DNA from: Ruditapes philippinarum
Taxonomy: Eukaryota
DNA: 64,000 bases
Direction of reading: 5' to 3'
Assembly: GCF_026571515.1 (NCBI RefSeq)
Contig: NW_026860876.1
Span: 124,001 to 188,000, forward strand
The number at the start of each line of letters is the position of its first letter. Position 1 is the stretch's first letter. Below, one piece after another: positions 8,574-64,000 of the stretch. The notes beneath the pieces were generated by a model. That model was not told the origin of the DNA. It made no database searches and was given only the letters and a program-made list of their open reading frames with translations. A program made the translations under genes and the position numbers.

Positions 8574-9280
8574 CTAATGCGATTGTAGGCTTTTCAGCAA
8601 ACGAACATAATAAGCGAATGCGTTATCAAAACATTCTCTTTGTGTCGAAGAAGATGTACAGATAAGTTGCCGTTTTTCGATAGGTGACTTAATTGAAATT
8701 CCAATGTTTGACTTTAAATCATTGTTGTTGCGTCCCTTATTATTATTCAATCCAAGAACCATTGCAATGACATTTTCCAAAGAGTTATTGTCATTTGTTT
8801 TATCCAAACCATAATCACCTGACAGAGTTACTTCTGGTAAAATTACATTTTCTAGTTCATTGTTTTTCTCGTCAGTTGCCTCGTCAGGGTTAAATAAGAC
8901 TGATTGATCGTATGTGTCTTCTTTTTCCTCTGGCGATTCATTTGCGCCTGTGTCGTCAAGAAGATTCTTCAGTATATCAATCATGCCAGCAATGTTCCTG
9001 ATGTCCTGTAAACGTGTCTGTAAATCAGATTGTGGCTTAATATCAAGATTATATCCTGTGTTCTTGTCGTTCTGAAGATGAGCAAGGGTATTCTTTCGAG
9101 TCGGAAGATTTCGTTTGCCGATATTTCGAAGAGCAACAGGGTCCATCAAACTGTCGTGCATTCTAATAAACATGGAAAGTTGAGAATAGAAACACCTTTC
9201 CGAGCTTGATCCTTCGGGACACAGTCGCGATTGTAAGGCATGAAGACTTCTTGTTAATCTCGATGATTGATTTTCTGGTC
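8574..9280 (-). CDS. Coding exon 2 (terminal) of the prohormone: two Cys-loop peptides separated by an acidic/Asn-rich spacer
   Basis: Longest ORF in the window. Acceptor tattacAG|GA at 9281/9280; G+GA makes Gly, in frame with PENQSSRLTR. The spliced CDS is 807 nt (268 aa + TAG at 8576-8574). Convertase-type sites: RLTR, GKR, RK, KR. Peptides: SLHALQSRLCPEGSSSERCFYSQLSMFIRMHDSLMDPVALRNI-GKR (9248-9120) and KR-QLICTSSSTQRECFDNAFAYYVRLLKSLQSH-stop (8669-8577). Confidence 0.9.
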
Positions 9281-17155: not shown

Positions 17156-17621
17156 CATCAACATAGTTGACTTGAATCTGAACAGGTGCGTCACCTTGAC
17201 AGCTTATAGCAATAAAAAGGATTGTTTATTAAACTGCGCCATACGATATCGGTTTTCGTTTTTGTGTTTAATTTTCTAAAACGAATTAAAATATGTATTT
17301 CCACTAATCCACTTTCGAACTTCTATTTAAGCTATTTCCGTCCATTGTTTTCTTTTGTTTTGTTTAGGGCACACGGATTCGTTTACTCATCAACATAGTT
17401 GACTTGAATCTGAACAGGTGCGTCACCTTGACAGCTTATAGCAATAAAAAGGATTGTTTATTAAACTGCGCCATACGATATCGGTTTTCGTTTTTGTGTT
17501 TAATTTTCTAAAACGAATTAAAATATGTATTTCCACTAATCCACTTTCGAACTTCTATTTAAGCTATTTCCGTCCATTGTTTTCTTTTGTTTTGTTTAGG
17601 GCACACGGATTCGTTTACTCA
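17156..17621 (+). repeat. Exact 232-bp tandem duplication
   Basis: 17156-17387 is repeated at 17388-17619 with no visible mismatch; CA microhomology at the junctions. Confidence 0.95.
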
Positions 17622-43000: not shown

Positions 43001-45730
43001 TAAGTTGTTCACAAACATTTGCAAGAGTTATTTCAATAAAGGAAAAGATATCCGGTATCTTATACATATTTCAAGGTTTAGTTTTTAAATTGCAATCACA
43101 TGAACCGGACGTCATGCACAGAACGTTATTTGCTTAAATTTCAGTGTAAATTCAAGCTAAGTAATCAACTTGCCATGCAGCATATTGTGATGAAAAACAA
43201 TTCTGTGTCTTATCATTAACATTTCTGAAAATACTTTTAATTTGTTATATTCAAAATACGACAACAGCAATTAAAACATTACCGTATTAAGTTACACTTA
43301 ACATTCTTTTATGCGAACAATAAAGTATACAAGGAATGTGTCCTTCACCTTCTTTAATCAGTGTGCTTTTATCTTGATAAGAGCATAACTGTTTTCAATG
43401 TATAATGTAAAGTAATCAAGCATTCGAAGAGAGGTGTGTTAATTTAAAACAATCACACTATACTTAAAGAATTTGATAGCAAATAGTTTGCACCGAAAAG
43501 TTTAGTTATTACAGAAAAATACCGAATCGAAATTGAAACTGTTGTGGATAAAACAATTTTAACACGTTATTTTCATTTCAATTCATTTATGGGTTAATAT
43601 GTCTACAAAATTATAGATGTGTATGTATTGTTGTTTAAATTTATAAAATGTTATATTTAAATGTATTGGTATCTAAATTTATTGATATTTAAATGAATTG
43701 ATATTTAAATGTATTGATATCTCAATTAATTAATACTTAAACATATGGAAAATTTAATTTATTGATACCTTTATGTATAGGTATTTAAAGTAATTTTCAT
43801 TTTAAATGCATTGATGTAAATGTCGGTTTTGAAAAAACTTATGTCATTGTTTAGAAAATGATATCGAATCAAGTATTTTAAAATCAGCAATCAAGTCGCA
43901 AATAATTAGTTGTAAATATTTTTAGCAATTTCACATAAACTGTAGTACCAATAAAACTTATGTTGTAGACATTGAACTGTTGAGAACCCATAAATCAATG
44001 TCAATGCAATTTAGAAAATAATGACTACATCTGAAATTGAAGAATATTCGATAATCACCTTTTCTTCTAATGTTCAGAAATAATCTTCGGTATGCTTATA
44101 TTGGTATTATTTTTTTAAAGCAGCATAGCATAGAATTCCAAAAGTGTGGCTCAAAGAAAGGAGGTAGAGGAAAGAAACATATTTTAGATAAATATGTGTA
44201 CTCAGTTTACTGTAATCATACTTTTTGATATGACTAAGTGTGTGGACAACTGCACTTTGATCAATGGTAAACTGTACATATATAGTTATTTATTTCTTAC
44301 TAATTAGTTATTATTATTATTATTATTTATTATTATCTGAGGATCTTAATGATGAAAAAAGAAACACATGAAATATATGTCGAAAAAAGAATTGTGGAAG
44401 CAGGTGAATATGTAATTAATAACATTTTAGTTATTGTAATATTCGTCTGACGTATTTAACATTTATAGACTCATATAAAATAATATAAAATAAAACCAAA
44501 TTTAGATAATGAAACTCTGATTTAACGCGGATATGAAATACAGGTTATGTGTCTCATATTTAAGTGGACCTTATAAATGAGTAAGATGTTACTGTTATAC
44601 TATGGAGACCTAAATATTAAGCAAGTACCTTAGTACTAAGCACAAACACATCGGATGACAATGTTAATTATTCCTCCTCGAACATAAATTGACTTTTAGT
44701 GTCTAAATATATATCTTTGTCAAAGCCTTTAGAATCAAAAATACGTTACATAAATAATAAAATATTTCAGCATAACGGACAATGTGTTTAAAATAAAAAT
44801 TTGTTTTTAGCTAAACACATTTTTCAATTTATTGAATAAAAATTACTTCCTTATGAAAACATGAAAATTGCTTATTAACAACTACACGTATCCGCTCTTC
44901 CTCTTCAACTATACTACGGCTTAGGAAACTAACTTATAGAGAATATTATATATTATTACCCCTCACTTTTTTCGTAATGCTTATTCCCCATAGGCCTCTG
45001 GGAGTTATTTTTACTGTTAATGCACGTGTACCACGTGACTAAAATGTTGTACTGTTACAAAGGTAACAGTATTTTTAACAGTATAAAATCTGGTCACGTG
45101 GTCTATTTTCTAAATAAAATGAAATAAAATGGCCGCCATTTTTTTCTCGATTCATTCTTATTTTCGACGTTAGGACATCAATTTCATCTCTGGAGTAAAT
45201 ATGACACTCATAAAATTTAGTTGTTTGTACCCTAGTGTGCTTTTCGCGTATAAAATATCTTTTTGTTTTCAACGGAAGTAATTGCAATGTAAATAGTTAT
45301 GTGTCAAACTGGAACATGCAGACGATTTAAGCATAAAACAATGGATTATTTAACTATTTTTATCAGTGAAACGTTACATATATGGTAGACAGACATAGGA
45401 TATCATCGTTATTTTGTCAAAAAACAAGAATATAAACTAAGAATATTCTGAAAACAGAAGGATCAGATTTCACAGATCATAACCGTGTAAATGGGTTAGT
45501 GTTTTGTTTTCGAAATAAATACTAGCTTATTGTATGTTTATGATTTGTAGATATTATCACTTGCTTAAAGAATGAAAGAAAAAGAAAACTTCTCAAGTAG
45601 GCCTAAAGTACACTTAAAACTTAAAAGGTAAGGACAGTTTAGTTTTTGCTACTCTTGGTTTATTTTTGTTACAGTTAGATTAAGTTGACAAATTCAGACC
45701 ATCACAGTATTTGTTCGGGGTAATAAAATT

Positions 45731-45841
45731 AATAACACATGGGTTTGTTTGTTACAGTAAAAATATCATCCCTACGCCTCGGGTAACAGTTTTTTCCTCG
45801 GGATGATACTTTTACTGTTACGGAAAAACCCATGTGTTATT
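45731..45841. repeat. Long imperfect palindrome (~46-bp arms) at the end of an insertion
   Basis: AATAACACATGGGTTT..ACAGTAAAAATATCATCCC / GGGATGATACTTTTACTGT..AAACCCATGTGTTATT. Confidence 0.85.
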
Positions 45842-45916
45842 TATAGAAAAAAAAATTGTAAAATGAAAAAAATGAGGATGTATGACATTTGTTCTCTCTT
45901 TATACGTAAGAAAATA

Positions 45917-46219
45917 GATTTACATTTTGAGGTTCGTTATGTTAAGGTCAAGGTCACCGTGACCATCACCTAGATAATTTGTAAATAATTTGTATTTTAT
46001 ATTTTTGCTGTGCTGTCTCAATATTTTATACAAAGATATGTCCTGACAGTGTATATTAACCTTACTGATTTACATTTTGAGGTCGTTATGTTAAGGTCAA
46101 GGTCACCGTGACCATCACCTAGATAATTTGTAAATAATTTGTATTTTATATTTTTGCTGTGCTGTCTCAATATTTTATACAAAGATATGTCCTGACAGTG
46201 TATATTAACCTTACTGATT
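45917..46219 (+). repeat. ~150-bp tandem duplication of a HINE-type core unit
   Basis: Units start at 45917 and 46067 with GATT microhomology. The paralogous region ~60660-60800 has one unit only. Confidence 0.9.
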
Positions 46220-48587
46220 CTAGGGTCAGTCAGCACAGTGACATTCAACCCTGTTTATAGATGTTTTACAACAAAATGTGTAGTTTATTCGGGGCTTCAA
46301 TTACAAAATATAAATATCACATCGCCCTGATGGTGGAACGAAATGTGCAGCCTAAGCCAGTGATATAAATCGAAGCGTTACCTAAATATGAAATCTTCTC
46401 AACTTTTTATCTTGGTTTACCCACATAATAAAGAGAGATAAATGTTGTTTACGGCAAAGAATAATATACTATTACACAAAATGATTTCGGCAAGTAATGA
46501 AAACTGAGAGAAACAAAGAAACAACACATAAATAGCTTAGTAAACTTTTTATCTTTAAATTCAATATCTTCATACCATGAATAAGTATACTGAATTCTGT
46601 AAATATTTCTTTATAAATTAATTTAGCTGTTTGCCTTTTACGTGTATTTTGCTTGACGCTCAGAAATGCTTTTTAATTGTCATTATGTCCATCTCAGTAT
46701 TTAAAAGGTGAATGAACAGCTGCAGGGAAATGTCCAGACTTAAACATAATTCTTTTTTAATTTCATTACTTTACTTTGCATGAATAATGATTAGCCCAAG
46801 TGAATGTTGAAATTTCCCTTCCTTCAGTTATATTCGGTTATTCACAGATTTGCGCTATCTTTTAAAATTGAGGCGTTTTAATTAATCTAAAATGTATTCA
46901 ACTCTAAACATTTATTATTTTTATTGTAAGTCAATTACCAATGTAATAGATACTCGTTTACAAAAAACATCATGTTCGTCTTAACTTGAAAGCGGGAAAT
47001 TAATTGTTGCTTTGAGCATTTTTATTATTATTTTGCAAGAGTTTTTATTATCAAAAAATTTAATTATTTGAAGCTTAAATTTGAGCAAAACAAATCAGGA
47101 AAAGTCTGAAAATCCTTAACGTTTTTAGATTACGATTGATAGGTGAGGACATGTGGTTATCCTGCCACGAGTACAATGACTTATTTGCTTGCTAATATGT
47201 TATTGGAAACGATATCAAGTATCGTAAAGCTTTTTAAAGTTTGAAAACTGAGAGATAACTTATAGCTATATTGACTGATACATGCTATGTTCAACATAGC
47301 TATGTTTTTCAAATTAAATGTCATATATCGACATTATAATTATTATTAATTGGACAACATCATTATTGTATTTGTTTACCTTCTTACTTTTACTTTTATT
47401 TACAATACAGTAGCAATACATTGCTTTATATGTCATCGTTTGCCGGCAACCTTGACAGATACTTCTGGCACATGGACATTGTACCACGTTTATAACAAAT
47501 TGAAACATCATTTAAAAATACGCCGTATCTTCTATCTGATAAAGTATTATTAAAGATCTATGATCACTAAAAATCATCGTTTACATTACAAAGTTCATCC
47601 TTTCAACAATAATGTATTTCTGATTGCAATAGACACAATGTAAGTGATAGATATTGTTTGATGCAATGTAAAAATAGGATATATATGTTTGCTGCCACAG
47701 GATATTCATTTTTCCTGGTCGGTGATTACAACGGAAGACTACGAGTGAATACGATAGTGTCTTCGTGCTTTTTAACATTAACAGTTATAAAATGGCGAAA
47801 ATTTAACATTTCCAGTGTTTCTAAATGTTGCACTTTTACTCGCTAATTTATGGGCAACCTTTTATGAAATAGGACGAAAATAAGGACGATAAACAATGGT
47901 TATTTTAAATGTTTTACTGCGAGCGACGTGAACACCTTACGTTCTTTAAACAAACCCTTTAAGTTTCTAAGCTAAGCAGACGGGCCTGCAACCTAAGCTT
48001 ATAAGTCTCGAATTTGCTATTTTGCATAAAAACTGCGCGCACTGGTGAAGAAACGGAGAAAAATAGCATTAACGGGCACACGATGTTGTAGCACTTGCGT
48101 GACTTAAAAAGCTGCTAGTAAGATTCAAAACATAAAGTACCTAATTACCGAACTAGACGTAAACAAGTGCTAGAAATACATCTTTTGGCTTCTGCAAATG
48201 TATTCAATTAATAAATGAAAAGTTTACAACGGATATCTCTGAAAGAAGTAAAGGTTTCCTGTATTTGCAAAATGTCGCAATTATGAGAAAACAACCAAAA
48301 TATTAGTTTACGTTGGTATGCCTTATACCAATACTCCAAAATTATTAACTGACTCAGCATGAGATCCTTGAATAACCCAATTCAATCACAGCCGTAAATC
48401 AAAGCACAGAAGGCGCTGAATTTGTTTGGGTCTCAGAATGTCAGACAGGTGAAGGTTGTGAGATTATAAACCAATTTGTTTTTGTATAGTGCCACCAATG
48501 CTAACTGTAGTAAATTGGCTATAAGGCTAAATGAACACTGATATTCAATTCAATGTTTATTTGACTTGAAAAATTAAAATAAAATGA

Positions 48588-51141: not shown

Positions 51142-52151
51142 CGAGGGTTGTTCGGGAAGTTCTGGGAATTTTGTCATATCTCCTATATCTTTTGTTTCTA
51201 AGACGTAATATTTTGCACATACTAAGATTAGCATATCACGGAACTATTCCTAAAAATTGAATAGAATCAGACAACAATAGCCGGAAATAGCAGTAACCAT
51301 AGCAACACTATAACGCCGCACCGGAGCAGTCCGACTCTAAAGAAAGTATAACGCGCTACACTAATAATATTTCGTAATTTTGATAACGTAAAAAATGCGC
51401 GAAAACGCTGGTCAGCAGCGGAACGTCATGACGTCATTTCCTGAAAATATCATAACGTTATTTAAATTCTCAACGGATCAACATTGTTTTAAAGTTGTTG
51501 CCCAGAGCCACTGAGTAAACAACATGACGTCGATAGGTGACGTTGAATTGCGAAGCATCGTGAAATTTTGTGTTGCGCTGGAAAAGTTTTCCACAGAAAC
51601 AATGAAAATGATCAATTCTACAGGAAAATACAAGAAATGCAGTCTGGCTACAGTGTATAGATGGCATGCTCGTTTTAAAGAAGGAAGAAACCCTCCATAC
51701 AGCCCGGACCTCGCTCCGATTGACTTCCGTGTGTTCCCGGAGCTCAAATCACAGCTGCGTGGAAAACGCTTTGACTCAGCTGACGATCTTGTTAAGCATA
51801 CGCAAGCTATAGTCTCGTCCTTTACCGATAGCTGGTAGGTGGAAACATACAATAAGTGGATCAGCCGACACAGGAAATGTATCGAAATTGCAGGTGACTA
51901 CGTTGAAAAGGTGCGACGATCGATGGACTTTAACGTCGCATAACGTTGCAAATGACGTCGGCGTGCTCCGGGTGTTTGTTATATGGTTATTTACTATTTT
52001 TATTATGTTTTAGTTTCTGTGTGTATGATGATGATATTTTCAGATACTGTACAGAATATATTGAAATAAATGCGTATATATTTATATTTACGCTAACCCG
52101 ACTACAACGTGTGCTATAAAACAATTATCAGAACTTCCCGAACAACCCTCG
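51142..52151 (+). mobile_element. Non-autonomous mariner (Tc1/mariner) element with an internally deleted transposase
   Basis: 23-bp perfect TIRs CGAGGGTTGTTCGGGAAGTTCTG, with TA on both sides (51140-41, 52152-53). ORF 51524-51838 fuses the HTH N-terminus (ELRSIVKFCV..TVYRWHARFKEGR) to PPYSPDLAPIDF; after a stop it continues KWISRHRKCIEIAGDYVEK. Confidence 0.95.
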
Positions 52152-57400: not shown

Positions 57401-58382
57401 AGTCAAAACAAAACCTCAGTGGAGTTCTTTTAAAGACTGCCTGAATATTACGACGCTTTAAATGTTACTTTTAAACTGTTGTCAATCTTGTTGAGACAAT
57501 TGACATTTTATAGATAATGGTAATGAAATAATAATGAAAACTGTGTTTGTAAATCTTTACTATTTTGAAACTTTTATTCACTTGTATCAAAGTGTTTTTA
57601 AAGGTTTTTTGTTTTTGTTTTGTTTTTATCCCTTATAAACAGGCAGTCTGATTGAAAACAAATAGTCTATGTATATCCATTGTTACATAAAATATATTTG
57701 TTTATTTTTCATATAAGATTGAAATATATTCACTGAATGAACACTAGATGCAATATTTTCATGAGTGGCGTAATCACAAGTGAAAACAGAATAGCTGGTG
57801 CACACGAAATATATTTCAATCTTATATTACAAAATTGTTTGCCGTCCTTTTTGTTATTTTATTAGTTCTTATATTACTTGCTTTCTGGTATAAAGAATAT
57901 TTATTAACCATACACCGTGTTATTGTCATTAATGATGAACAATGTATAGGCGTGTTGTAGAAAAATTTCGATTTTTACTCAAATGTATCTATATTTTGCA
58001 TCAAAGTAAAAGTCCTTGACCTACGTGGCTTTAAAAAAACTATAGGGTGTCAGTATCAGTATAAATTCAAGCTAAGTAAACACCTTGCCATGCAGCATTT
58101 TGTGATGAAAAACAATTCTGTGTCTTATCATTAACATTTCTGAAAATACTTTTAATTTGGTATATTTAAGATCCCACACCAGCATTTATAACATAACCGT
58201 GTTAAGTTACACTTAACACTATTTTATGCGAACAATAAAGTATACAAGGAATATGTCCTTCACCTTCTGAAAACATTGTGCTTTTATCTTGATAAGAACA
58301 TAACTGTTTTCAATAAATCATAAAAAGTAATCAAACATTCGAAGAGAGGTGTGTTAATTTAAAACAATCACACTATACTTAA

Positions 58383-59027
58383 AGTTACATTAAATAAATA
58401 TGTTAAAATATTTTTGCCGTCGGCCTAAAAATCAAGCATTCTACAGTTTCATTAACCTTTTTAACAGTATCGTTGTAAATCTCATCAAATATTGTTCATA
58501 AATTAGGATTTTAAATGGAAAACCCCACGGTAACACTAAAGTTCGTATACGAATTTTAACATGCAAATGAAGACTATAATCAGCTCGTGTATGCGCTACG
58601 TCACGGAGTTATAGTTGCTATCCGGAACACAGCAAATATAAGATTTTTCTTGTGCAAACACACTTTTACCGTTTAAGCTTCACGGTGCACTAGGCCTGTG
58701 GTTCAGAAAAAATAATCATCTCATAAAAAAGATTAATTTGTATGAAAATATCCGTTACAATGCGGAAATATACCGTTAAATTAGGACTGCTACTTATAGT
58801 CATGTTTGTTGATTTAATATTGATGTACGGATGATCTGAAGGCGGAGTTTCTCATGCAAACAGAAATTGTACTTCCGAATTCGCCACAATGAGGTTGCAC
58901 ATTTGTATGCTCATTAAACTCATTTTGGTTGCCTGGACACCAAAATAAGATCTGGAGTCGATATGAAACCCAATTTAATAATGAAATGTCGCTATTTATT
59001 TTTTTATGAAATTTATTTAATGTAACT
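58383..59027. mobile_element. Kolobok-type non-autonomous DNA transposon (645 bp)
   Basis: 17-bp perfect TIR AGTTACATTAAATAAAT with TTAA on both sides. The paralogous segment near 43460 shows the empty site ctatacTTAAagaatttg. A TTAA TSD with RR..YY ends fits Kolobok rather than piggyBac. Confidence 0.85.
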
Positions 59028-59839
59028 TTAAAGAATTTGATAGCAAATAATTTGCACCGAAAAAGTTAGTAATTACAGAAATGTACCGAATCGAAATTGA
59101 GACTGTTGTGGATAAAACAATTCAAACAAGTTATTTTTATTCATTTTTAGGGTTAATATGTCTACAAAATTATTAATGTGTATGTATTGTTGTTTAAATG
59201 TATAAAATATTATACTTAAATGTATTGATATCTAAATGTATTGATATTTAAATGAATTGATATTTAAATGTATTGATATCTCAATTTATTAACTTAAATG
59301 TATGGAAAATTTAATTTATTGATACCTATATGTATAGGTATTTAAAGTAATTATCATTTTAAATGCATTGGTGTAAATGGCGGTTTGGAAAAACATATGT
59401 CATTGTTTAGAAAATGATATCGAATCAAGTAATTTTAAATCAGCAATCAAGTCGCAAAAAATTAGTTGTAAATATTTGTTTAGGCAATTTCACATGAACT
59501 GTACATCTAGTACCAACAAAACTTATTTTGTAGACATTGAACTGTTGAGAACCCATAAAACAATTTCAATGCAATTTTTAAAAAAATGACTACGTCTGAA
59601 ATAGAAGAATATTCGATAATCACTTTTTCCTCTAATGTTCATTGGTATATTGATATTACTATTTTAAAGCAGCGTAACATAGAATTACAAAAGTGTGGCT
59701 CAAAAAAAAAGGAGGAAGAGGGAAGAAACATATTTTAAATAAATATGTGTACTCAGTTTACTGTAATCATATTTTTTGATATGACTAAGTGTGTGGACAA
59801 CTGCACCTTGACCAATGATAAACTGTACATTTATAGTTA

Positions 59840-59987
59840 NNNNNNNNNNNNNNNNNNNNNNNNNNNNNNNNNNNNNNNNNNNNNNNNNNNNNNNNNNNNN
59901 NNNNNNNNNNNNNNNNNNNNNNNNNNNNNNNNNNNNNNNNNNNNNNNNNNNNNNNNNNNNNNNNNNNNNNNNNNNNNNNNNNNNNNN
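59840..59987. other. Assembly gap (148 N)
   Basis: Run of N. The equivalent position in copy 1 (~44289-44350) is an (ATT)n-rich stretch. Confidence 1.
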
Positions 59988-61060
59988 GATGAAAAATGAA
60001 ACACATGAAATATATGCCGAAAAAAGTATTGTGGAAGCAGATGAATATGTAATTTATAACATTTTTAGTTATTGTAATATTCGTCTGACGTATTTAACAT
60101 TTATAGACTCATATAAAATAATATAAAATAAAACCAAATTTAGATAATAAAAATCTGATTGAACGCGAAAATTCAGATTATGTGTCTCATATTTAAGTCA
60201 ACCTTATCAATGAGTTGTTACTGTCAAAGATGTTACTGTTATAATATGGAGACCTAAATGTTAAGTAAGTACCTTAGTACTAAGCACAAACACATCGGAT
60301 GACAATGCTAATTATTCCTCCTCGAACATAAATTGACTTTTAGTGTCTAAATATATATCTTTGTCAAAGCCTTTAGTATCAAAAATACGTTACATAAACA
60401 ATAAAACCGACAATGTGCTTAAAATAAAAATTTGTTTTTAGACAAATACATTTTCAATTTATTGGATTTAAATTACTTCCTTATTAAAACATGAAAATTG
60501 CTTATTAACAACTACACGTATCCGCTCTTCCTCTTCAACTATACTACGCTAAAGATGATTGGCTAAGGTAACTAACATATAAAGAATATAGTAACATTTT
60601 GAAAAATGAAAAAATGAGGATGTATGACATTTGTCCTCTCTTTATACTTCAGAATATAGATTTAGATTTTGAGGTCGTTCTGTTAAGATCAAGGTCACCT
60701 AGATAATTTGTCAATAATTTGTATTTTACATTTTTGCTGTGCTGTCTCAATATTTAATACAAAGATATGTCCTGACCGTGTATATTAACCTTACTGATTC
60801 TAAGGTCAGTCAGCACAGTGACATTGAACTAAATAAACCTTTCCCTGTTTATAGATGTTTTACAACAAAATTTGTAGTTTATTCGGGGCTTCAATTACAA
60901 TATATAAATATCACATCGCCCTGATGGTGGAACGAAATGTGCACCCGAAGTCAGTGATATACAACCTTCTCAACTTTTATCTTTCTTTACCTACATAATA
61001 AGAGAGATAAATGTTGTCTACGGCAAAGAATAATATGATTTTACAAATTTTAAAAATGTG

Positions 61061-61133
61061 CAGCCTGACCGGGACTCGAACCCGGGACTCCCGGAACACC
61101 GTACCGCCGCTCTACCGACTGAGCTATCCGGCC
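61061..61133 (-). pseudogene. tRNA-like cloverleaf inside the 3' LTR of the TRIM
   Basis: 73 nt: GGCCGGA TA GCTC AGTCGGTA GAGC G GCGGT ACGGTGT TCCGG GAGTC CCGGG TTCGAGT CCCGG TCAGGCT G. D and T arms and the A/B boxes are intact, the acceptor stem pairs 6/7, and the anticodon arm is degenerate (GGT at the anticodon position). TATATA lies ~20-25 nt upstream and T5 downstream. Confidence 0.8.
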
Positions 61134-61309
61134 GCTTACACATCTTCTCCCCTATATAGTGAACAGTTCTGAACCGTGACATACTCCCCTGCTATATTGA
61201 AATTCGTCCTCGAATTTCACAGAGTTACAGAGCAATGTAAATTAAACTCTGAGCTTTACAGTCACGGCCCCACGTTGGGCGCCAAATGTCACAGGGTGAG
61301 AAAAATGTG

Positions 61310-61382
61310 CAGCCTGACCGGGACTCGAACCGGGGACCCTCGGAATACCGTACCGCGGCTGTACCGACTGAGCTATCCGGCC
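61310..61382 (-). pseudogene. tRNA-like cloverleaf inside the 5' LTR of the TRIM
   Basis: Second copy of the same 73-nt unit, with a few substitutions that break one D-stem and one T-stem pair. Confidence 0.75.
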
Positions 61383-61430
61383 GCTTACACATCTTCTCCC
61401 CTAAATAGTGAACAGTTCTGAACCGTGACA

Positions 61431-62367
61431 TACTGCTGTGCAGGAACAGACTCATTAGGAGTATTAGAAGTAGAAACAGAAATATTGGCCTGAGGGGTTG
61501 CCTGCTTAGAGGAAGAGAAGTTGCTAATCTGGACAAGCGCAAGTCTTCCTCAATGGCTCTCAACTCTTTACGAAGAGTATTGAAGTTGAGGTCCTTCTGA
61601 AAAAGAAATCTAGAGGCATTTCAAGCTCTATATCACGAAGGCCTGACCACAACCTACCCCGCAGCATCTCATCCTTGGACATCCTATCAAGATTGCACTG
61701 TATACTGCTAAGCAACCTCTCCAGACGCTAACTATAATCAGCAACAGACTCTGCCACTCTCTGCTGTTCATTATAAAACTGTTCCTTCAACCTTTCAGTT
61801 GAATGAACATTACCATAAATGCCATCTAACTCATTCAAGATCTCGGGAACAGTGGCATTTTCACCTAAATGCAAAAGAACACCTCTGGCACTGCCTTTCA
61901 AAATAGATAAATATAGAATCCCTAAAGAAAGCCCAAGACTTACGAATGGCCTCCCTGATAATAAATGGTGGATAATTACCCTCATCAATGACACAATTAA
62001 CATCATAGCGCCATATCTCAAACATTGACGAGTTGTATTTCCCATCTCCTGAAAAAGAAGGTAACTCAGGGATACGGGCATGTACCAAGTCCCTATTTGT
62101 CACAAAAGACAAGTATGGTTGAGGGTTAGGCATGGGTGGAGGAATGCTATTAACAGGTGGAGGAAAGTGAACCTGATGTGTACCTGTTCTGCTGATATGT
62201 TCCCGTATAGGAGTAGGTGTAACATTAAATGTATGACTTGGGTGTACTGTATGAGGTGTACTTGCCATTGCATTAACTTGAAACTTACCAGATTTCTGTG
62301 ACTGTCTAGCAAAAAATTCCAGATCTGCATCTGAATAGTCTAAGGACTGAGTTGTACCATCCGCCAT
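61431..62367 (-). mobile_element. Decayed Ty3/Gypsy gag (PNMA-like capsid), frameshifted and truncated
   Basis: Overlapping ORF pieces join to LPSFSGDG..FEIWRYDVNC..REAIRKS/LKGSARGVLLHLGENATVPEILNELDGIYGNV..LKEQFYNEQQRVAESVADYS*RLERLL..DEMLRGRLWSGLRD..LRKELRAIEEDL, a typical Gypsy/PNMA capsid pattern. It has a stop, frameshifts and a 34-nt insertion, and no pol follows. The AT-rich 62368-64000 may be its 5' leader. Confidence 0.85.
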
Positions 62368-64000
62368 GATGAGAAAACAAAAAAAATGGATTGGACCAAA
62401 AAAAATAAACGTGACTTAAAATTCAGGATTTCAAATGGCCCAAATTGTACACCATACACTAAAAAAAATGATTTACATCAGTAACCAGTTTAGGTCTATA
62501 AAGACGTAATAAAAAACAAACAATAGAAATAAAACAATTTTATTTCAAGGGAAAAAAAACACAAAGACTTGAAAATAATTAATCAACTTTATTCAAATTA
62601 TGACCCACACAGTGCACCATTCATTACACAAAATTTCAAGGTCACCTGAATAATATAATATGTACCATACAGTCAGTAAATTAGATCAAAGTTTGTAAAA
62701 CAATAGATCTAATAACACTAATATTCAGTCTCTATTATAAAGCAGTATTAAATTCAACTAAATGATATTCTATGCTTAACTTACTAAAGACACCTAAGAT
62801 TGTCAAGTTACAGGTCTATGAAATTATACTGTGAAATGCACAGACACTTGTTACTTGCTATAGTGTATAAATTTCAACTAATTTATGGTAATTGCAAGAG
62901 ACACACAGGCTTGTAAAATTATATGCAGGAATTCTGTATTGCAAACAATGTTCAGTCCAGTACTTTATACAATATCTGAAAAAAAATCCCAAAGACCTAA
63001 CTTACATGTATATAGATTATCTATAATTTACCTGCTCAGACACAGACTCAACTTAATACAAGTACACACAAAGCTAACCAGGATAAATAAATGTGTAAAG
63101 TTTTCTTTCTTCTGATTTAGACAATTATTTCAATGCAAAATGTTTAATTTTCAGTTCATAAAGTAAAATAATATACCTATCAACAGACTTTTTATAATGA
63201 CTAAATGAGTAGAACCCAAATTATTAATTTTTCAGCTGTGATAGAGTAGCAACAATTGATTTGCTATTTGTATAATTGTATGTTAGATTCTTGTAAATAT
63301 AGAATAATTCTATATAAGAAAATATATTACCACTTACACAAAACACTTCACTATTCGAAAATGAAGAAGAAGTTTAGTGTCGGTTCTCACAAACTGTGTA
63401 TAAAAATATAAAATCAGCGGAATTCAAAAATGAACAATTTATTCTAATTAAAGAATAAATATTTCACTTCAAATCTATTTACCGGCTACATGATACCGTC
63501 GCAGTATTTCAAATGAAATGTTATTTTAAGTTTACAGAATTTTAAATATAATTGATTTTAACTGCCCGGGTTGAACAATTTATTCTAACTAAAGAATAAA
63601 TATTTCAAACCTACTTGTATACTTTATATTTACTCACAAGTCAACTACAATGATCTGTTCCTACAATAAATGCTAAACTATTCAATCTACATGCTTACTT
63701 CAGGCAAAATTCTGGTTCAAGCAAGTCCTGCTTTTAATAAAATAATAATAATAAAGATAGGTACAGTAAGTAATCAGGTACAATAAGTTATCAGGATAGG
63801 ATATGAAATAATTCAGCTGTTGGATATATAATATCTGGGGTAATATAGGATTTATTACAGTAAATGGGAGTAGCTTCAGATAGGGACAGGTGTTATTCAG
63901 ACTAGTTATTCAGACCAAGATGAAAGATAAAAGAGACAGAGTGTTAGCTCACCAACCACCTGATAGTTAAATGCTGTGTCTACATGTCTGTGAACTGTAT

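Follow-up and report, generated by a model that had tools for sequence, protein, structure and literature searches.

A 249-bp repeat of a tRNA-like sequence on the minus strand of a Ruditapes philippinarum contig (NW_026860876.1, positions 124,001 to 188,000; this whole 64,000-nt stretch is the window) raises the question of whether it represents a tandem tRNA pseudogene, a SINE or an LTR retrotransposon, and, if the last, how an element with a Pol III terminator ahead of its primer-binding site (PBS) could be copied. The locus very likely holds a truncated copy of a high-copy, non-coding TRIM of the Helenus type; Pol III likely transcribes the element from the A and B boxes in its LTR, and Gypsy enzymes likely copy and integrate it. 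The observed part of this reading comprises the anatomy of LTR, PBS, internal part, polypurine tract (PPT) and LTR, the tRNA-like units, the high copy number and the precise TG...CA ends at many sites.

Anatomy of the element

The components lie in the order LTR-PBS-internal part-PPT-LTR on the minus strand, forming a direct repeat with a start-to-start spacing of 249 (Table 1). The earlier note had resolved the apparent 249-bp tandem repeat into LTR-PBS-105 bp-PPT-LTR in this orientation, and that anatomy was borne out. Its description of a 144-bp LTR ending in GTGACA holds for the 5' LTR and fails for the 3' LTR, which is 130 bp long and is without its last 14 bp, without GTGACA and without the terminal CA. 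This truncation, the surrounding gag remnant and the conflict between the T5 run and full-length transcription by Pol III had been overlooked. The element measures 379 bp, or 393 bp with a whole 3' LTR, which is below the 1000-bp limit for TRIMs. The two LTRs are 94.8% identical, differing at 7 of 130 positions (LTR-LTR BLAST E 1e-56, well outside chance), and a BLAST search found no third LTR copy within the window.

Two T separate the end of the 5' LTR from the start of the PBS at 61284. The claimed exact 18-nt complementarity to the tRNA-Lys(CUU) 3' end was confirmed for Apis mellifera; the PBS was scored against the tRNA-Lys-CTT ends of Apis mellifera and Aplysia, from which the clam's own tRNA may differ. 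The sole listed frame of at least 90 aa across the internal part begins in the gag remnant. On the sense strand of the element, runs of four or more T occur only at 61305-61301 and 61056-61052, so that both LTRs carry the T5 run attributed to them. The TATA-like box attributed to the LTR is perfect in the 3' LTR, and the 5' LTR reads TATTTA. In RNA run X24, 244 of 387 and 252 of 376 reads over the TATA position of the 3' LTR carry the letter of the 5' LTR, and the perfect TATATA is a minority variant.

Table 1. Features of the element and of the adjoining gag remnant, in window coordinates
Feature	Position	Strand	Evidence or remark
PNMA-type (Gypsy-like) gag remnant, frameshifted	61431..62367	-	tblastn of P0008 in four pieces; context, outside the TRIM
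5' LTR	61287..61430	-	144 bp, TGTCAC...GTGACA; loose ends accumulate precisely at 61287 and 61430 in runs of both DNA and RNA
U3 arm, purine-rich, complementary to U5 across the T5 run	61383..61402	-	predicted folds and duplex
tRNA-like unit of 5' LTR	61310..61382	-	Rfam RF00005, 29.9 bits; box A 61375-61364, box B 61331-61321; GGT at anticodon position; arm pairing
T5 run in U5 of 5' LTR, a canonical Pol III terminator upstream of the PBS	61301..61305	-
PBS	61267..61284	-	18/18 complementary to Apis mellifera tRNA-Lys-CTT 3' end, 17/18 to the Aplysia entry (PMC10886601 Fig. S2A, S2C)
Internal part, non-coding	61182..61286	-	105 bp
Hairpin just ahead of the PPT, 9-bp stem and 4-nt loop	61198..61219	-	fold; common to oyster Helenus-3_CGi, -4_SaGl and -4B_SaGl and to other LTR elements
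PPT adjoining the 3' LTR	61182..61193	-
3' LTR, cut at the T5 run	61052..61181	-	130 bp; 7 differences from the 5' LTR
TATA-like hexamer (TATATA in 3' LTR, TATTTA in 5' LTR)	61153..61158	-	starts 25 nt before the tRNA-like unit
tRNA-like unit of 3' LTR	61061..61133	-	Rfam RF00005, 43.9 bits; ARAGORN Thr(ggt); box A 61126-61115, box B 61082-61072
T5 run where the copy ends	61052..61056	-

Copy number and family ends

Four public runs were aligned to positions 60950-61699 of the window (750 bases), with 8391 contigs aligned from run X1 and 7600 from run X5. Across the element the summed depth in X1 came to 57,000-781,000, compared with 31-88 for the right flank; such a depth is not a copy number, and we estimate that copies are probably in the order of thousands. 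In many records the aligned part broke off at precisely 61287 and 61430: X1 gave 147 and 134 such contigs, X5 gave 156 and 125, and X24 gave 462 and 404 reads. Agreement among the flanks at these exact LTR ends was 0.40-0.44, indicating that many unrelated sites border them. The earlier note had asked whether further copies exist and whether they end in simple-repeat tails like SINEs; many copies with exact LTR ends and no shared tail were found.

In X1 as in X5, the LTR had roughly fourfold the summed depth of the internal part, which suggests many solo LTRs. For tandem arrays of the clam family, joints at which a record goes back along the element were seen in the runs and can also be explained by ordinary junctions between LTR and internal part. 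Of the changes seen, C>T and G>A were the most frequent, accounting for 32 of the 66 places in X1. At PBS positions 61268 and 61272 about half of the depth differs, possibly reflecting subfamilies primed by another Lys-CTT isodecoder.

Insertion site and truncation

The element breaks into the gag remnant near residue 300 of 364, and the frame of the remnant changes near 61900, 61600 and 61507. The first three gag pieces are 87-100% identical to the R. philippinarum protein P0008, which matches the Pfam family PNMA (E 4e-10) and, weakly, Retrotrans_gag. The summed depth on gag was about 1100 in X1 and 500 in X5, compared to 31-88 and 15-43 respectively on the other flank, which suggests that gag belongs to a small multi-copy family. 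In addition, a deep X5 contig (record 22) departs from the window sequence at the LTR start, where gag goes on without the element. Given this contig and the gag depth, the simplest view is that the TRIM is an insertion into one gag copy. The adjacent gag was rejected as a helper of the element, as the window is without a matching PBS or LTR.

At the other end, no more than about 7 bp separate the truncated LTR from the point where a local duplication ends (58056-61045 / 43141-46476, 82-91% identity). None of the contigs listed in the public runs crosses the whole locus, and the truncation is therefore read from this assembly. An N gap at 59840-59987 lies inside the same duplication.

We considered the alternative that the copy was patched into a DNA break as cDNA or as an array fragment, with no integrase involved. 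Such an event would account for the PPT-like letters of the left junction, for the cut right end and for the missing remainder of gag, and both junctions offer it some support: AGCAGTA, the last bases of the left flank, is close to the PPT end, and the cut right end joins the end of the local duplication. The last four flank bases, AGTA, also resemble target sites of a related family (TGTA, CGTA and CATA; see below), however, the left LTR end is exact, and the multi-copy gag continues without the element in X5 record 22, as expected for an ordinary insertion followed by deletion. We therefore regard break patching as rather unlikely, while it deserves to be kept in view. Under the preferred reading, the copy likely landed in a Gypsy gag that was decaying, and the last 14 bp of the copy, its target site duplication (TSD) and the remainder of gag were lost afterwards.

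Target site duplications and a related family

The TSD is unreadable at this locus because the right end of the 3' LTR is lost. When flanks are pooled, those of X1 and X5 have TATG at the end and CATA at the start, as a 4-bp AT-rich target would allow, and X24 shows TATG only. Exact-pattern scans for the clam family gave no match in metagenome contigs, one, none and none in three scans of viral contigs and one in genome contigs. The two matches (L001 and L122) were rejected as chance, their agreement being confined to the 19-20 pattern bases.

A scan with the pre-PPT hairpin retrieved 120 metagenome loci of an estimated 160 or so. A related family was found in 41 of the 120 (L033:1-1480, L076, L083, L100, L112, L119 and 35 more), with a 152-bp LTR, a 110-bp internal part, a primer site for a tRNA other than Lys and an atypical PPT. 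Its LTR bears a well-paired tRNA-Ala(TGC)-like unit scoring up to 65.7 bits in Rfam, and 162 of 276 columns could be aligned to the LTR and internal part in the window. Its LTR-start and PBS motifs had no match in Data S1 of the Helenus survey by Kojima (2024, PMC10886601), as far as that file was covered. Three-LTR arrays of this Ala family are present in L033 and L076. Of six elements with both outer ends, five had an exact 4-bp TSD and none a 5-bp one. These TSDs support the mechanism in the lineage, not for the clam family itself. One copy of the Ala family (L070:615-695) is cut at the PPT and is followed directly by a different tRNA-like sequence.

Transcription and proposed cycle

We infer transcription by Pol III and a Gypsy helper. 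In the proposed cycle, TFIIIC would occupy the boxes, and transcription by Pol III would begin at the 5' LTR's tRNA-like unit. In human systems, T5 allowed no read-through in vitro and was leaky in vivo (PMC3141230, consulted in part). Given the in vitro result, few Pol III transcripts begun in the 5' LTR should reach the PBS, and most are predicted to end at the T5 run in U5; given the leakage in vivo, a product of minority read-through is favoured. The read-through minority would extend across the PBS, the internal part and the PPT as far as the T5 run of the 3' LTR, yielding an RNA of about 330 nt in which the tRNA-like unit is the repeated R. Host tRNA-Lys(CTT) would then prime the minus strand and the PPT the plus strand, and insertion by a helper integrase at AT-rich sites would produce a 4-bp duplication.

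Two features would fit Gypsy elements as the putative source of these enzymes. The PBS is common to Gypsy-125_CGi, according to the sections of PMC10886601 covered. The pre-PPT hairpin, whose fold is equalled by 5 of 200 shuffled sequences, also precedes (as 18 nt) a PPT and TG in 17 other loci of the 120 (among them L019, L021, L026, L043, L052, L054, L055, L061, L078, L085, L089, L115, L118, L120 and L121). These are the remainder of 29 flagged loci after 12 were dropped as nine copies of one sequence and three of another, neither of which has a real purine tract. One of two upstream frames put to Pfam (that of L118) matched a Tf2-type SH3 domain (E 1e-8) and, weakly, a chromodomain, corresponding to a Gypsy integrase tail of chromovirus type. 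The recurrence before PPT and TG together with this integrase tail suggests that the hairpin likely acts as a Gypsy-type cis signal, apparently one shared widely, in the proposed cycle.

RNA data were also compared with the proposed transcript. In X24 (about 4% of the run), 6645 reads aligned, equally in both directions, and 89% of them run on into unlike sequence. No pile-up of starts or ends of the kind that a discrete transcript would give is among those listed for X24. This fits an element present in RNA mostly as a passenger of host RNAs. Separately, hundreds of RNA reads in X24 and X16 share one flank at loose ends at 61363, 61398 and 61232 (agreement 0.92-0.96), which suggests that a small number of abundant host transcripts, or a single one, contain pieces of the element.

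Alternatively, Pol II may make the transposable RNA, directed by the TATA-like box in U3 or by promoters of the host, in which case the tRNA-like unit would serve mainly as an RNA structure or a TFIIIC-bound element and the T5 run would be harmless. The position of T5 between the boxes and the PBS suits this alternative, T5 being an efficient terminator in vitro (PMC3141230), as does the TATA-like hexamer beginning 25 nt upstream of the tRNA-like unit. The acceptor stem is paired at 6 of 7 positions here and at 7 of 7, with other sequence, in the oyster relatives for which folds were seen, which is unneeded for the function of the A and B boxes alone, and the RNA reads lie mostly inside longer RNAs. 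Against Pol II, the perfect TATA is a minority variant, and the TATA-like run of the oyster relatives lies, judged by eye, about 8 nt from the unit (PMC10886601). The boxes are unchanged between the LTRs while the spacer between them varies, U5 has no evident poly(A) signal, and the same source gives Cassandra, a TRIM of plants, as reported to be made by Pol III. On balance, Pol II as the source of the transposable RNA appears unlikely but is a serious rival, and transcription by Pol III from the boxes is the preferred reading.

U3-U5 complementarity

The whole LTR is predicted to fold as a long stem bearing the tRNA-like unit (z -2.5; 1 of 200 shuffles), and the fold computed for the predicted RNA of 331 nt has its 5' U5 paired to its 3' U3 (z -2.0; 2 of 100 shuffles). 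The U3-U5 duplex itself was reached by 1 of 300 shuffles, or 1 of 500 when the terminal repeats were left out. In the proposed cycle, this pairing of the 5' LTR U5 with the 3' LTR U3 would keep the two ends close to each other for strand transfer. A similar U3-U5 complement in different letters can be seen by eye in the oyster families 4_SaGl and 4B_SaGl. In the related Ala family, only 1 of 18 LTR copies had a duplex below 5% of shuffles, and in L057, a decayed oyster-type copy described below, the duplex was not significant (30 of 300 shuffles; 191 of 500 after trimming of the ends). In stability the antisense duplex comes close to the sense one (-20.4 vs -22.3), and the U5 of the window also pairs with foreign U3s (-18.2 and -19.9). 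On these grounds the duplex was rejected as a general feature, and U3-U5 pairing is absent from the four mentions of secondary structure located in the Helenus paper (PMC10886601).

It is conceivable, if improbable, that the pairing acts as a switch. The premise is that a hairpin would strengthen a short U run as a Pol III terminator; no paper on hairpin-dependent termination was found in the literature searched. In this model, the 5' transcript, being without U3, would pass the first T5 run, while the 3' U3 would extend the acceptor stem to the U run and cause Pol III to stop; the same pairing would then provide a panhandle for strand transfer. If true, the switch would solve the terminator paradox of LTR elements with tRNA promoters. 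It would then also be the Pol III equivalent of retroviral polyadenylation that depends on U3, maintained by compensatory changes between the clam and oyster lineages over about 500 million years.

The tRNA-like unit

The tRNA-like unit is 73 nt long in each LTR, and both copies exceed the gathering score of 29 for Rfam RF00005 and contain the box A and box B patterns. ARAGORN called only the unit of the 3' LTR, as tRNA-Thr(ggt), leaving that of the 5' LTR uncalled. Pairing was 6/7 in the acceptor stem, 4/4 and 3/4 in the D arm, 3/5 in the anticodon stem and 5/5 and 4/5 in the T arm, and the anticodon loop begins with A and C at positions 32 and 33, so that U33 is missing. The unit had previously been described as a complete tRNA cloverleaf; it is of full length and Rfam-positive with intact A and B boxes, but its pairing is imperfect, most of all in the anticodon stem. 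The nearest oyster families, unlike the clam, retain a full anticodon stem (PMC10886601 Fig. S1A).

None of the seven differences between the LTRs lies inside the A or B box and six lie between the boxes, in agreement with the earlier suggestion that the promoter arms were kept while the anticodon arm decayed. The probability of such clustering was about 0.011 for any 30-nt span, and 0.0008 for that interval when picked post hoc. Dating of the insertion by LTR divergence was rejected, because the clustered differences point more to subfamily variation or template switching than to a clock.

GGU is not the usual eukaryotic Thr anticodon. That the LTR encodes a working tRNA-Thr(GGU) would accord with the ARAGORN call and the Rfam scores above the gathering threshold, and Kojima deems related oyster LTRs able to encode tRNA-Thr-GGT (PMC10886601). 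It is nevertheless highly improbable for the clam, in which the anticodon stem is paired at 3 of 5 positions, positions 32 and 33 hold A and C where a pyrimidine and the invariant U33 belong, and the acceptor stem has one mismatch.

Comparison with known elements

Helenus elements, also called TRIMp3, were defined as TRIMs of less than 1 kb with tRNA-like LTRs, a PBS and a PPT, with 4-bp TSDs in animals, probable Gypsy helpers and boxes of the forms TRGCY...YGG (A) and GGTTC (B) (Kojima 2024, PMC10886601). The parts of this paper covered state that Pol III activity is unvalidated for any Helenus. The clam element agrees with the definition in size, tRNA-like LTR with boxes, PBS, PPT, lack of coding capacity and interspersed multi-copy occurrence with defined termini. 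The identification of tRNA-bearing TRIMs as Helenus, given in the earlier note, was therefore correct, and its expectation that the class is known and the family perhaps new agrees with the absence of the family from the part of Kojima's list covered.

The closest families, judged by eye, are Helenus-3_CGi, -3_CVi, -4_SaGl and -4B_SaGl, an oyster group with a Thr-GGT unit and a Lys-CTT primer (PMC10886601). The clam element shares with them the TGTCAC...TGTGACA ends, the ACGGTA loop, the Lys-CTT primer site, the pre-PPT hairpin, a similar PPT and a T run in U5. The LTR is 139-140 bp in the oyster group and 144 bp in the clam, and the internal part 103-120 and 105 bp respectively. In contrast, the sequences of U3, the acceptor stem and the middle of the internal part differ, the anticodon stem is paired at 5/5 positions in the oyster group against 3/5 in the clam, and the PBS match is about 13 nt against 18. 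The metagenome contig L057 (positions 394-630) holds a decayed one-LTR copy of the oyster type resembling Helenus-3_CVi, of which 159 of 264 columns aligned to the clam element.

All 51 bivalve Helenus families listed come from five orders of Pteriomorphia, and the molluscs of Table S1 are Pteriomorphia only (PMC10886601). In the portions of the paper's text covered, Ruditapes, Mercenaria and Venerida are unmentioned, and whether such genomes were searched is unstated. The clam LTR had no match among the bivalve families in the supplement sections examined. Nine window motifs from outside the hairpin were also compared with the supplement, in which sequences are line-wrapped so that a motif across a break can be missed; seven had no match and two matched only generic box regions of Lingula families. 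Among the literature retrieved on Helenus, TRIMp3 and Ruditapes elements, no report of the clam family was found; the family may be in Repbase or Dfam. Judged from its sequence, the clam element appears to be a new family, and a new host-order record, of a published kind, which Repbase or Dfam may already have catalogued.

Other small elements were also considered. The plant TRIM Cassandra resembles the clam element in having a small-RNA-gene promoter within each LTR and self-complementary LTRs predicted to close its RNA into a hairpin, as in the clam LTR, and differs in its boxes A and C derived from 5S rRNA, its primer site and its plant hosts (PMC7215508, as far as covered). An Rfam scan of positions 60000-64000 gave just two tRNA matches and no 5S rRNA-derived sequence, and membership of Cassandra/Ajax was rejected on the absence of such sequence from the LTR. 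The element biv-TRIM (Satovic et al. 2019, PMC6934838) is abundant in R. philippinarum and shares the host, TRIM anatomy, solo repeats and arrays, but has repeats of 202-218 bp, an internal part of 77-80 bp, no canonical PBS and a conserved 14-mer. This 14-mer is absent from the window at up to two mismatches. Identity with biv-TRIM was rejected on the repeat and internal lengths, the canonical PBS and the absent 14-mer, with a motif search covering one short supplement, whose figures may be images. Bivalve tRNA-derived SINEs likewise have a tRNA-derived head with A and B boxes, but have no LTR pair, PBS or PPT and are LINE-dependent (PMC11481361, consulted in part); membership was rejected, since the clam copies end at LTR termini with unrelated flanks. 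More generally, a tRNA-derived SINE or tandem tRNA pseudogene with a coincidental PBS and PPT, which the 249-bp period and an end at a T run followed by AT-rich DNA might recall, is already contradicted and can be given almost no weight: an 18-nt PBS comes right after GTGACA and a PPT right before TGTCAC, hundreds of records end exactly at both LTR termini, 14 bp past the T run, and no motif match was found in eight supplementary text files of the bivalve SINE survey (PMC11481361).

Significance and other features of the window

The kind of element is already published (Kojima 2024) and the gain is incremental. The clam family extends the range of Helenus from Pteriomorphia to a venerid clam. 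The common Thr-GGT loop, primer and hairpin imply that the elements either arose no later than the divergence of the two bivalve subclasses (about 516 Ma, a date cited in PMC6934838) or were passed on by horizontal transfer. The family is also an abundant substrate for addressing the Pol III claim made for Helenus and the question of a T5 run before the primer site. Since ARAGORN calls the LTR as tRNA-Thr, a family this large will inflate the tRNA gene counts of its host, which is a farmed species.

Elsewhere in the window, an exact 234-bp tandem duplication at 17156-17621 (100% identity) is either recent or an assembly artefact. The minus strand at 8577-9278 encodes the uncharacterised protein LOC132713672, identical at 234 of 234 residues to R. 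philippinarum XP_060552305.1, a match that identifies the host as the Manila clam, of the order Venerida. No Pfam family matched this protein, and named homologues were found in Mercenaria and Dreissena only. From its dibasic sites and two similar Cys-X-Cys-Phe peptide motifs, it looks like a neuropeptide precursor. A mariner-like transposase remnant with weak HTH_48 and DDE_3 matches lies on the plus strand at 51515-51838.
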